Part shown: piece by piece, positions 10,532 through 13,500 of the stretch
Position numbering within the stretch: position 1 is the first letter of the stretch
How the letters are laid out: every line of letters starts with the position of its first letter
Assembly: GCA_000092065.1 (NCBI GenBank)
Contig: CP000587.1
DNA length: 64,000 nucleotides
Strand: one strand, 5' to 3'
Origin: Ostreococcus lucimarinus
Lineage: Eukaryota
Made by a program: the position numbers and the translations under genes
The notes under the pieces: generated by a model
What the model was told of the DNA's origin: nothing
Databases searched by the model: none
What the model saw: only the letters and a program-made list of their open reading frames with translations

Positions 10532-13500
10532 ATGTCGCGGTACATGGGGAACTTCGCGCGACCGGAGAACGCGATCAAGCGCGCGGTGCGCGCGACGCGA
10601 CGACGACGACGCGACGCGGGACGACGACCGACGGGGGACGGGAGAGGGTTTGGATTTGAGATTCGAGCGCGCGGCGACGACGGGAGGGGCGAAGCGAAAG
10701 GACGAGGGCGCGCGAAGACTGACGAGACGTCGCATCGATCGGACGCGCGGTGCAGGAGGAGCTGATCAACGTGGGACAGAAGCAGGCGGCGCTGCTGTCG
10801 CTGCACGAAATCGTCACCAGTCGGCGAAACAGGCAGTGGACCAAGGTTCTCGAGGAGGTCATGTTCAAGTACGTCGAGCTGTGCGTCGAGCTGAAGAAGG
10901 GCAGGCTGTGTAAGGATGGGTTGATGCAATATCGCAACACGTGCTTGCTGGTGAACGTGCAGTCGCTCGAGGAGGTGGTGAAGCGATTTTTGAAGCTCTC
11001 GACGGAACGCGCGGAGACGGCGCAGGCGGAGTTCGGCGCTACTCTCGACGCGGACGTCGATCTCGAGGCCGAGTTCACGCCAGAGTCGCTGTTGGCGAAG
11101 GCGTATCGACTCGACCACGAGAACGAGGCGACGGAAAAGGAAACGGTGACGCCGTGGTTCAAGTTTTTGTGGGAAACGTATCGCAACTTGCTCGACATCT
11201 TACGCAACAACAACAAGCTCGAGGGTTTGTACGCCATGGTCGTGAAGGACGTGTTCAAGTTTTGCCTCAAGCACAAGCGCACGACCGAATTCAGGCGCGC
11301 GTGCGACTTGATGCGAACGCACTTGAACAACATGGTCAAGTACAAGGATATGCGCGACAGACCGGATTTGAGCTTACCCGAGACGCAAAATCTCTACATG
11401 GAAGTGCGTTTCGAACAGCTGAAGGCGGCTACGACGCTTGAAATGTGGCAAGAAGCGTTCCGATCGATCGAAGACATTCACGGGTTGATGCTCTTGCTTC
11501 GCCGTTCGCCCAAGCCGCAGATGATGGCGTTGTACTTTGCCAAGTTGACGGAAATTTTCTGGATTGGTAAAAATTACCTCCACGCCGCGTACGCGTGGAT
11601 GAAGCTTTACAGCGTTAGTAAAACGTATAACCGCAGCTTGACCCCTGAAGACGAACGCGCGTTGGCTTCGGGTGTCGTGTTGGCGACGATGTGCATAACG
11701 CCGTACACTGAAAAGTCCGTCTTTGGCGACATGGACTCCGATCATCAATTCGATCGCGACTCTCGCATGGCAAGTTTGCTCGGTTACCACATCGATCGTA
11801 GTCGCAGCATCAGCGATGTGCTCTCGCGTGAATTGTTGGCGGCCGAGATCAAGCGCAGCGGTTTGTTGGCCAAGGTGGACGACGACGTCAAGCGTTTGTA
11901 CGCCCTCATGGAGCAAAGCTTTTCCCCGCTCGATCTGTGCAAGAAGGCTGACGTGTTGTTTAACGTGTTACAAGGCACGACAATTGAAGTCAGTGAAGCC
12001 TCGCCGGTTTCCTCTTTCGACTTCAACTCGTTCTTACCGAGACTGAGATCGCTCGGCATTATTCGCATGGTGCACCAGCAATCCAAGGTGTTCGAGACGA
12101 TGAAGATTGATTCTTTGAAATCCTCCGTGCCGTTCATGCCGTATCACGAAGTCGAGCGTATTCTCGTACAAGCGATTCGAAGTGATTACATTTCCGTTCG
12201 AATCGACCACGAGACTGGATCGATGAACTTTGTCGGCGATCGCCTCGAGACGGGTTTCGTCAAGACGCACCTCTCTCGCGCCGCTCGTCTTTTGCAAGAA
12301 GGCATGAGCAAGCTCGCGCCCAAGACACCCGCCGATGTCGGCGCTCGTGTACTCGGTGCCGAATTGCGCGCCGCCATCGAGGCCGAACACAAGCGTGCGC
12401 TGGCGCGCAAGGTGGTCATCGAGCGCCGCAAGGAGGAAGCCGAGCGCGCCGCCGCTGAGCAAGAAAAGGAGGAAGAGGCTAAGCGCGTCGCCGCGCAGCG
12501 CAAGCACGAAGAAAACGAGGCCAAGCGCCTCGAACAAGAAGCTCGTGCTCGCGAAGAGAAGAGAATTCGTGCGGAAATGGAGGAAAAAGAGAAACAAGAG
12601 GCTCTCGAGTTGCTCGCCGAGCAAGCCAAGCGCGCTGGCAAAAAGGCGCCGATTGTCCTCGAGGAGGGCGTCGTCCTCGACAAGCGAGCCATCATGCAAG
12701 ATGCTATTCAAGAACAAATCAAGGCGCGTCAAGAGCAAGAACGCAAATTGAACAGTCTCGCTAAACGCATGGATCACGTCGAACGTGCCAAGCGCGAAGA
12801 AAGTATCAGTCTCATCGAGAAGGCGTACAAGGAGCGATCGGTGGATGACGAAAAGTACCACGCCGAACAACAAGTCGCGATGGCTGCGAAACATCGCGCC
12901 AAGTGGGAGGCGGAGAGCGCAGAAAAGCAGCGTTTGATGCGTATGGAAGGTCCGCGTGCCGAGTTCGCGCGTGGTGTCATGATTCGTCGGGCCGAGCAAT
13001 TCGCCGCTCAAGAGGAGGAACGCGCGAGAAAGCTCGAGCAAATGAAGAAGCACAAGGAGGCTGAACGCTTGCTCCAAGCGAAAAAAGATTACATCAAGCG
13101 TCTCCAAGACATCGAGGCTGCGGTGAAGCACGAAAAGCGCGAAAAGGATCGCATCGCGCAAGCTGAAAGACGTCGTCAACAAGAAGAAGAGGAAGCTGCT
13201 AGAAGACAACGCGAACAACCGCCGGCACGCGGCGGCGACGATCGCTGGGGCGCGTTCGCTGGGAGCGCGTTCGGCGAGCGTCGTCGGGTCGACGAAGCCC
13301 CAGCGCGACCTCCGTCAGGTGGTAGCCGATGGGAACCGTCAAGAGGTGGTGATCGTTACGAGCCTCGTCGCGACGACGGCCGGGGCGGCGGATTCGGAGA
13401 TCGCGATCGCGCGCCGTCGAATAGATGGGAGCGAGGCGGCGGCGATCGCCCGCCGTCGAGAAGCGGCGATGACCGCCCGCCGTCGAGAAGTGGCGGTGCT

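Follow-up and report, generated by a model that had tools for sequence, protein, structure and literature searches.

The 64-kb stretch of DNA analysed here (the window; 61.7% GC) comes from an Ostreococcus-like picoalga of the Mamiellales and contains seven introns, spread over six nuclear genes. With high confidence these are ordinary U2-type introns whose core signals have been homogenised to a near-invariant form. The homogenised set comprises a donor G|GUGCG(U/C), a branch site GACUGACG(A) and a YAG acceptor about 29-37 nt after the branch adenosine. This pattern is already known, being the published hallmark of ordinary introns in Ostreococcus and the Mamiellales: a GTGCGTG donor, a GACTGACG box and a branch-to-AG distance of 20-35 nt (Irimia and Roy 2008; Verhelst 2013; Roy and Bowser 2022). 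The gene order of the window agrees with that of O. tauri KZ155778.1, and its EF-G is 89% identical to that of O. tauri, 88% to that of O. mediterraneus and 92% to further clusters. The roughly 38 genes of the window carry only these seven introns, or about 0.2 introns per gene.

The box GACTGACGA matches exactly seven times when both strands of the window are searched, at 4642(-), 10717, 18701, 23396, 33531, 33727 and 44988(-), against an expectation of 1.1 (none of 100 shuffles reaches seven) or, in separate shuffles, 1.3. All seven copies are intronic and sense-oriented, in the 5′ part of a gene and upstream of a YAG acceptor. Across the seven introns the branch A stands 28-36 nt from the acceptor A and 29-37 nt from the G of the AG, and the gap from ACTGAC to the AG, as defined by Irimia and Roy, is 26-34 nt. 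The donors G|GTGCGY sit 122-481 nt upstream of the acceptor, which is also the range of intron lengths. Every donor is GTGCG(T/C), with T in four introns and C in three; position -1 is G in all seven and position +7 is G in three, while CGCAG serves as acceptor in three of the seven. The introns are placed 54-390 nt into the coding sequence, and their bodies share a similar G-rich, T-poor and CG-rich composition, with no polypyrimidine tract in any of them. U12-type introns have a donor (A/G)TATCCTT and a branch TCCTTAAC some 10-15 nt before the acceptor; the combination of GTGCGY donors with GACTGACGA at 29-37 nt from the acceptor therefore sets the present introns apart from that class. The seven introns and their signals are as follows.

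4616..4860, minus strand: first intron of ISWI, 245 nt, phase 0; donor GGG|GTGCGTTC at 4860-4853, acceptor CGCAG ending at 4616; branch box GACTGACGA at 4650-4642, branch A to G of AG 29 nt
10586..10755, plus strand: first intron of eIF3a, 170 nt, phase 0; donor GCG|GTGCGCGC, acceptor GTGCAG; branch box at 10717-10725, branch A to G of AG 33 nt
18517..18740, plus strand: intron of transketolase (TKL), 224 nt, phase 0; donor TCG|GTGCGTTC, acceptor CGTAG; branch box at 18701-18709, branch A to G of AG 34 nt
23289..23436, plus strand: first intron of Tic110, 148 nt, phase 0; donor ACG|GTGCGTCG, acceptor ATTAG; branch box at 23396-23404, branch A to G of AG 35 nt
33258..33565, plus strand: first intron of organellar uL18 (uL18a), 308 nt, phase 1; donor GAG|GTGCGCGC, acceptor GCGCAG; branch box at 33531-33539, branch A to G of AG 29 nt
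33643..33764, plus strand: second intron of organellar uL18 (uL18b), 122 nt, phase 0; donor AAG|GTGCGTCG, acceptor CGATAG; branch box at 33727-33735, branch A to G of AG 32 nt
44954..45434, minus strand: first intron of chloroplast EF-G, 481 nt, phase 0; donor GAG|GTGCGCGA at 45434, acceptor ACGCAG ending at 44954; branch box at 44996-44988, branch A to G of AG 37 nt

The original prediction, which had pointed out this stereotyped donor and branch box, thus described something real. Its intron coordinates are all correct GT..AG intervals, and the five donors it read as GTGCG(T/C) are so; the two that it had not seen were located at 33258 (uL18a) and 45434 (EF-G), and both are GTGCGC. It spoke of six introns where its own list holds seven, and it called the branch-to-acceptor distance fixed; the 28-36 nt that it gave are right, but they form a constrained range. 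The wider motif (A/G)GACTGACGA(G/T) that it proposed holds in four of the seven introns but fails in TKL (T upstream), uL18a (A downstream) and EF-G (C on both sides). A further string, GATCGGACG, is indeed common to the eIF3a and Tic110 introns between branch and acceptor, but since the window contains three further copies and the orthologous introns of a related Ostreococcus have none, its sharing is probably due to chance.

Could the whole pattern be a product of chance or ascertainment, with intron models built round a repeated 9-mer? GTGCGY alone occurs at chance level in the window (190 observed, 193 expected); the donors are meaningful only when box and frame are considered along with them. 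The introns were moreover recognised through the motif, which makes the statement that every intron found carries it partly circular for this sample of seven, and direct transcript evidence exists for one junction only. Against this stand the excess of boxes over the shuffled expectation, the fact that every box is sense-oriented and falls in the first 400 nt of a coding sequence, and the restoration of an ATG-to-stop frame by each splice, the six spliced gene models being free of internal stops. The splices are further confirmed by Pfam, transcript and orthology evidence. In a codon-shuffle test, roughly 50 kb of coding sequence otherwise contained no sense-oriented ACTGAC (0 observed, 3.6 expected). 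Taken together, these observations leave the artefact explanation a negligible probability.

Direct confirmation comes from TKL, where a polyadenylated metatranscriptome contig (L014; JGI sample 3300042101), 99.8% identical to the window, skips exactly 18517-18740, its aligned blocks covering 18059-18516 and 18740-20606; the Pfam Transketolase_N match is likewise unbroken over the junction. Same-organism transcript evidence is limited to this junction; for the other six introns the support comes from reading frame, from Pfam continuity or from orthologous gene models. A query with the concatenated spliced N-termini gave four matches, none of them a same-species transcript, and an exact look-up of five spliced proteins returned no match. 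In eIF3a, the spliced protein alone starts at position 1 of the Pfam eIF3a_PCI_TPR-like profile, exon 2 alone starting at position 8, and the orthologous intron in four Ostreococcus loci (L004-L007) carries GTGCGC and GACTGACGC. Exon 1 of Tic110 (23145-23288) encodes a transit-peptide-like N-terminus that is kept in two relatives (L006 and P0194); since the intron measures 138 nt in relatives and 148 nt here, the frame would not be kept across it and the segment must be removed.

Two exons precede the second uL18 intron:

33167-33257, plus strand: exon 1 of uL18, 91 nt, ATG at 33167
33566-33642, plus strand: exon 2 of uL18, 77 nt

The O. tauri uL18 gene range (917 nt, 153 aa) is matched exactly by an orthologous structure of 67+313+77+142+318 nt, and the Ribosomal_L18p profile of Pfam is matched without a break over the uL18b junction, from position 3 to position 115 of 116. 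The uL18b intron is missing in one relative (P0195, 74% identity). Exon 1 of EF-G, from the ATG at 45512, has a transit-peptide-like start, and transcript-derived EF-G sequences of relatives have comparable N-termini. A second possible donor, CCG|GTGCGT at 45452, would give an intron of 499 nt; both donors keep the frame, and the preference for 45434 follows reading frame and signals. An O. tauri 65-aa split gene model lying beside EF-G has no convincing counterpart here and looks dubious. In ISWI, splicing connects an acidic, ATG-started exon 1 (5031-4861) with the SNF2/SLIDE frame; this intron is the least supported of the seven, since exon 1 was drawn from reading frame and signals alone and is without homology or transcript match.

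No further introns were found by Pfam coverage of the approximately 38 genes, nucleotide alignment to two related genomes or comparison with O. tauri gene models; UTR introns, lying beyond the reach of this search, could still be there. Several other ACTGAC sites were considered as intron candidates and rejected: those at 3712(+), 11994(-), 18768(-) and 56615(-) are antisense to coding sequence, and the one at 42094(-) lies upstream of a plus-strand secreted-protein gene.

Comparison with other genomes places the introns in time. Introns occupy the same positions in other Ostreococcus genomes for eIF3a, TKL, Tic110, uL18a, uL18b and EF-G, that is, for the six of the seven that were compared, and are therefore old and not recently copied. 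For TKL they were found in loci L001, L006 and L002, the last belonging to a Micromonas-like relative whose Tic110 is also interrupted at the same position, and there the signals differ: the donors are GTACGT or GTAAGT, the branch sites CTAAC or GCTGAC, and a polypyrimidine tract is present. The orthologous introns in L004-L007 carry GACTGACG(C/A/G). Interiors of orthologous introns are 0.53-0.68 identical, against 0.45-0.57 in shuffled controls, while positions and signals are retained. Three orthologous introns of O. tauri deviate: the uL18b ortholog, at the same position, has GTTTGT with GACTCAC, that of EF-G (L009) has GTACGT with GACTGACC, and TACTGACGA appears in the third, so the strictness of the signals is not absolute across the genus. 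The EF-G orthologs in L010 and L012 likewise carry GACTGACC.

These data bear directly on the possibility that the introns form an introner-like family, in which a mobile intron-generating element was copied into many genes and donor and box descend from a common ancestor. Introner elements are known in the sister genus Micromonas, and IE-C of RCC299 has the same GACTGACG branch motif (PMC3879977, PMC4540971); within the window, the first 19 nt of the ISWI intron agree with those of the TKL intron at 18 positions, and the compositional likeness of all seven could be taken in the same sense. However, a MAFFT alignment of the introns leaves only the box and the AG invariant, and the 10-mers shared besides the box are (CG)n-type strings, of which the window contains dozens of copies on both strands. 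BLAST between the introns, with the low-complexity filter on, gave weak best matches of 19-131 nt and at most 38 bits, and in comparison within the window no intron matches anything else. The lengths spread over 122-481 nt, the 19-nt match between ISWI and TKL is lost in the TKL ortholog, and the shared positions across Ostreococcus, extending for TKL and Tic110 to a Micromonas-like relative with different signals, run counter to recent copying. Target-site duplications do not exceed 2 nt and no convincing terminal inverted repeats were found in the seven introns, nor does CGCAC, sought as the 5′-splice-site complement, occur in any of them. An introner origin is accordingly very improbable, and of the two readings first offered for the pattern, strict spliceosomal recognition fits the evidence and the published description, but common ancestry through introner-like propagation is unsupported. 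Because the introns are old and unique in sequence, they have no bearing on intron origin through introners.

Among known systems, the closest likeness is to Ostreococcus introns of the canonical type that lie outside the low-GC part of chromosome 2 (PMC2483917), which share the donor GTGCGT(G), the box GACTGACG and the spacing range, as well as a partial preference for CGCAG, a low intron density at normal GC and the O. tauri gene order. EST-confirmed O. lucimarinus introns outside chromosome 2 have ACTGAC in 87% and GACTGACG in 66.5% of cases, with a GTGCGTG donor and a spacing of about 20-35 nt (PMC2483917). All seven introns studied here have A as the ninth base of the box, in contrast to the published 66.5% with GACTGACG, but in a sample of seven introns that were ascertained through the motif the contrast does not reach significance (0.665^7 ~ 0.06). 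The canonical introns of Micromonas (Verhelst et al. 2013, PMC3879977) are alike in their donor AG|GTGCGT, NCTGAC branch and setting in an intron-poor Mamiellophyceae genome, but their branch lies 43-52 nt from the acceptor, compared with 29-37 nt here. The Micromonas introner elements (IE-A to IE-D, ABC-IE, D-IE, E2-IE; Worden 2009, Verhelst 2013, Simmons 2015) share GT/GC-AG borders and a GacUGAC branch, whereas the present introns are unique in sequence and at orthologous positions in other species. Beyond the green lineage, hemiascomycete yeasts (GTATGT, TACTAAC), Yarrowia, Trichomonas and Giardia also combine few, 5′-biased introns with a near-invariant donor and box and constrained spacing, the branch-to-AG distance being fixed in Yarrowia, Trichomonas and Giardia; here the signals are GTGCGY and GACTGACGA, the introns are GC-rich and G-rich, and the spacing varies over a 9-nt range instead of the fixed 2-4 nt of other strong-consensus introns. 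The claim of a branch box under tighter constraint than that of most green plants is correct, though not new, and the strong-consensus introns of the Mamiellales, of which the window provides another instance, represent textbook-style splice-signal homogenisation in intron-poor genomes.

The motifs, their positions, the restored frames, one transcript-confirmed junction and orthology with diverged interiors were observed directly, and from them we infer how such introns may be recognised. Where introns are few and auxiliary signals probably scarce, the spliceosome would depend almost entirely on the core motifs. The ACUGAC core would pair with the invariant GUAGUA of U2, leaving the branch A bulged, and the acceptor would be selected by its distance from the branch. 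Purifying selection would hold these signals constant while the remaining intron sequence drifts. At positions +3 and +4 GUGCGU is a poor match to the 5′ end of canonical U1, and the G and GA flanking the core of the box fall outside U2 complementarity, the canonical snRNA segments being GUAGUA and ACUUACCU. As these flanks are not complementary to canonical U2, they are more likely to be read by proteins, such as SF1/BBP.

The same mismatches could instead point to compensatory changes in U1 and/or U2, or to a second, dedicated spliceosome, pairing fully with GUGCGU and GACUGACGA. Cases of such snRNA co-evolution have been described for Entamoeba and for Mastigamoeba, where the donor is GUGCGC (bioRxiv 10.1101/2022.06.08.495308), and the possibility was raised for Ostreococcus by Irimia and Roy (PMC2483917). 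Nevertheless, Mamiellales favour GYGCGY while their U1 is standard: a single strong U1 candidate with a standard pairing region was described in five Mamiellales (Roy and Bowser, bioRxiv 10.1101/2022.06.08.495308), and the O. tauri spliceosomal RNAs, as far as they are cited in PMC2483917, are present in single copies only. Introns of the low-GC outlier region, with ordinary signals, are spliced in the same genomes, and in related Mamiellales the orthologous introns of TKL and Tic110 are removed with GTACGT or GTAAGT as donor and CTAAC or GCTGAC as branch site. Neither the window nor 106 kb of related loci gave an snRNA match in Rfam, and a U2 pattern scan of metagenome contigs gave one match, AT-rich and unrelated. 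Altered snRNAs appear very unlikely, and ordinary U2-type splicing with homogenised signals is preferred.

It is rather doubtful that the core signals of this lineage are stricter than those described for O. lucimarinus and O. tauri, although some features point in that direction: the essentially invariant 9-nt box, intron bodies that are rich in G runs and poor in T where a polypyrimidine tract might be expected, and exons purged of G|GTGCG and ACTGAC words. If true, it would imply altered protein factors (SF1/BBP, U2AF) and not altered snRNAs, together with selection, strong enough to be measured, that keeps cryptic splice signals out of coding sequence. Of more immediate use is the G|GTGCGY ... 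GACTGACG ... YAG triplet as a reliable gene-finding aid, a value anticipated by the original prediction and borne out by the recovery of the two missing donors. The triplet retrieves short 5′ exons encoding transit peptides that prokaryote-style gene callers miss, and applied to O. tauri EF-G it suggests an improved N-terminus, closer to those of transcript-derived relatives than that of the deposited model.

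Seven introns of the window share the donor G|GTGCG(T/C) (7/7) and a branch-point 9-mer near the acceptor, GACTGACGA, hereafter the box, which contains the branch adenosine.

Introns of the window (coordinates, strand, gene, length, distance from branch A to the G of the acceptor AG)
4616-4860, minus strand, ISWI, 245 nt, 29 nt
10586-10755, plus strand, eIF3a, 170 nt, 33 nt
18517-18740, plus strand, transketolase (TKL), 224 nt, 34 nt
23289-23436, plus strand, Tic110, 148 nt, 35 nt
33258-33565, plus strand, organellar uL18, first intron (uL18a), 308 nt, 29 nt
33643-33764, plus strand, organellar uL18, second intron (uL18b), 122 nt, 32 nt
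44954-45434, minus strand, chloroplast EF-G, 481 or 499 nt, 37 nt

The original prediction spoke of six introns, although its own list holds seven, and each of its intervals is a correct GT..AG interval. Its spacing of 28-36 nt matches the measured distances when counted to the A of AG, but a 9-nt range is not the "fixed distance" it described, and the flanking (A/G)...(G/T) it placed around the box occurs in 4 of the 7 introns and fails in the remaining 3. Both donors missing from it were located: the uL18a donor lies at 33258 (GAG|GTGCGC), giving a phase 1 intron behind an exon 1 at 33167-33257; the EF-G donor lies at 45434 (GAG|GTGCGC), with a second in-frame candidate at 45452 (CCG|GTGCGT). 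Removal of the introns yields six ATG-to-stop reading frames with no internal stops, and all seven lie 54-390 nt from the start within the coding sequence.

Independent support for the junctions differs between genes. Pfam matches run unbroken over the TKL junction (Transketolase_N, positions 3-151), the uL18b junction (Ribosomal_L18p, positions 3-115 of 116) and the eIF3a junction (eIF3a_PCI_TPR-like, positions 1-192); eIF3a exon 2 scanned alone matches only from profile position 8. A polyadenylated JGI metatranscriptome contig (L014), with 99.8% identity to the window, matches 18059-18516 and resumes at 18740-20606, so precisely the TKL intron is missing from it. The O. tauri uL18 gene has an annotated span of 917 nt for 153 aa, and the orthologous structure of 67+313+77+142+318 nt equals that span exactly. 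Exon 1 of Tic110 is conserved at the protein level in relatives, in which the segment between the exons measures 138 nt versus 148 nt here, so that frame is not kept. Exon 1 of ISWI is predicted from reading frame and splice signals only. As a separate observation, the EF-G protein deposited for O. tauri (P0201, 790 aa; 10001-10620 of the O. tauri locus L009, KZ155778.1) includes in its translation the branch box and ~150 nt of likely intron. An acceptor 34 nt past the branch A of GACTGACC would give an N-terminus of a length similar to that in transcript-derived EF-G proteins of relatives, and the acceptor of the deposited model is probably wrong or an alternative one.

At a window GC of 61.7%, GACTGACGA occurs exactly 7 times on both strands, versus 1.1 expected, and none of 100 dinucleotide-preserving shuffles reaches 7 (a second, own set of shuffles gave 1.3). 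In the same window its core words are depleted against shuffles, with 12 ACTGAC observed versus 21 expected and 57 CTGAC versus 106. Seven of the 12 ACTGAC sites are the boxes; the other five comprise four antisense to coding sequence and one intergenic. GTGCGY alone stands at chance level (190 observed, 193 expected), and the donor is therefore informative only in combination with the box and a reading frame.

In the original prediction the box was a feature of "every intron found", a partly circular phrase. In almost all of the ~38 window genes annotated by Pfam, domains are complete inside one reading frame, and nucleotide alignment to two other Ostreococcus genomes at their syntenic loci, which is interrupted at the TKL intron and continuous through the Tic110 intron, shows no within-gene gaps besides the known introns. 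Split genes in the syntenic O. tauri stretch are limited to EF-G, uL18 and a doubtful 65-aa model. By Pfam coverage, two-genome alignment and O. tauri models, no further introns were found in the window, a search that UTR introns could escape.

Introner-like common ancestry, offered earlier for the uniform architecture, would make these introns copies of a mobile intron-generating element. Alignment of the seven leaves only the box and AG invariant; besides the box, 10-mers common to at least three introns are strings like GACGCGCGCG, which occur 30-80 times in the window on both strands. Intron-versus-intron BLAST gives weak, mostly low-complexity matches, and BLAST of each intron against the window finds no match outside the introns. 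At the seven introns, target-site duplications do not exceed 2 nt, and a search for terminal inverted repeats gave nothing convincing. The spacer element GATCGGACG, proposed as shared, is probably coincidental, because it has 5 copies in the window and is missing from orthologous spacers. Orthologs of the eIF3a, TKL and Tic110 introns occupy the same codon positions in loci L004-L007 of related Ostreococcus, with donors GTGCG(C/T/G) and boxes GACTGACG(C/A/G), and O. tauri has the uL18a, uL18b and EF-G introns at the same codon positions. Between species the interiors show identities of 0.53-0.68 versus 0.45-0.57 in shuffled controls: fixed motifs and geometry are conserved while interiors drift. 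In a Micromonas-like relative of 56% GC (L002), the TKL and Tic110 introns (9636-10066 and 15281-15658) stand at exactly the same codon positions with conventional signals (donors GTACGT or GTAAGT, branch sites CTAAC or GCTGAC, a CAG acceptor) and a long, clear polypyrimidine tract; these are therefore the same ancient introns, written in different signal dialects in sister lineages. These results speak against introner copies: the introns are old rather than recently copied, and their signals became uniform within the Ostreococcus lineage. The O. tauri uL18b ortholog (L009 20600-20742, minus strand) departs from consensus (donor GTTTGT, branch GACTCAC, T-rich spacer), and a relative with 74% identity (P0195) has no such intron, so signal strictness and intron presence vary within the group.

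These signals were already known. Among O. lucimarinus introns that are supported by ESTs and lie outside chromosome 2, 87% have ACTGAC and 66.5% have GACTGACG; they use the atypical donor GTGCGTG, show a broad peak of branch-to-AG distance at ~20-35 nt and favour CGCAG as acceptor (Irimia and Roy 2008, PMC2483917). Canonical Micromonas introns have AG|GTGCGT donors and NCTGAC branches, and GACTGACG is cited as the extended Ostreococcus branch sequence (Verhelst et al. 2013, PMC3879977); Mamiellales prefer GYGCGY donors and have a U1 snRNA with a standard pairing region (Roy and Bowser 2022 preprint, bioRxiv 10.1101/2022.06.08.495308). The pattern is therefore a correct re-observation of a genome-wide property. 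From established pairing knowledge, the ACUGAC core could pair with U2 GUAGUA through one G-U pair and a bulged branch A, while the G before it and the GA after it, which do not pair with canonical U2, would more likely be read by proteins such as SF1/BBP. Two published explanations are candidates here: selection favouring strong core signals when introns and spliceosomes are both scarce, and co-evolution of introns with the splicing machinery.

The window itself is an Ostreococcus-like Mamiellales region of normal GC content, as follows from EF-G exon identities (89% to O. tauri, 88% to O. mediterraneus, 92% to further clusters), TKL identities (92% to a large marine cluster, 78% to Micromonas pusilla, 76% to Bathycoccus) and a gene order shared with several long marine contigs and with O. 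tauri KZ155778.1.

The seven intron bodies, taken upstream of the box, show strong strand asymmetry (45% G, 9% T) and 5.3 GGG per 100 nt versus 1.6 in coding sequence; G-rich composition recurs in orthologous introns of other Ostreococcus species. The box-to-AG spacer has no GGG, 18% T (twice the intron body) and often a GCGAT(T) motif; none of the seven window introns has a polypyrimidine tract. Exon words were compared with codon order shuffled within each gene (~50 kb of coding sequence, 37 CDS segments). On the sense strand GGTGCG is depleted (20 observed, 38 expected, P<0.001), as is ACTGAC (0 versus 3.6, P ~0.02-0.04), CGTGCG is enriched, and GGTGAG, GGTAAG and GGTACG show no depletion. 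This hints that exons are under selection to avoid cryptic donor and branch words of their own lineage, with P values that depend on a null in which codon-junction dinucleotides are not preserved.

Telo-box-like motifs, AAACCCT(A/G), group near the 5' ends of genes:
10276-10290, plus strand
23320-23326, plus strand
33502-33508, plus strand
10651, minus strand
51359, minus strand
relatives: L006 ~14668; L009 ~20905, minus strand

About 245 nt before the eIF3a ATG lies a tandem AAACCCTAAACCCTA; the Tic110 and uL18a introns have one AAACCCT copy each, and the eIF3a intron has one in antisense. Orthologous introns of other Ostreococcus species keep the intronic copies despite diverged surroundings. 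The window total of 7 is near chance, and it is placement and conservation that stand out. By analogy with the plant telo-box of translation-related genes, the motifs may serve as a transcriptional element. A (CGGT)n microsatellite of ~8 units (33058-33090, plus strand) lies ~80 nt before the start codon of uL18, inside the upstream region common to uL18 and a divergently oriented CobQ-like gene. The product of the single-exon gene at 42145-42649 (plus strand) is a small protein that begins like a secreted precursor with a signal peptide, has a glycine-rich C-terminus and matches no Pfam family; O. tauri has a conserved counterpart (L009 12923-13399). Just upstream of this gene, at 42094, the other strand has an isolated ACTGAC that belongs to no intron. 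The adjacent same-strand genes at 46849-48492 and 48605-50305 (both minus strand) belong to the BT1 (folate-biopterin transporter) family, and this tandem duplicate also occurs in O. tauri and in the relative L010.
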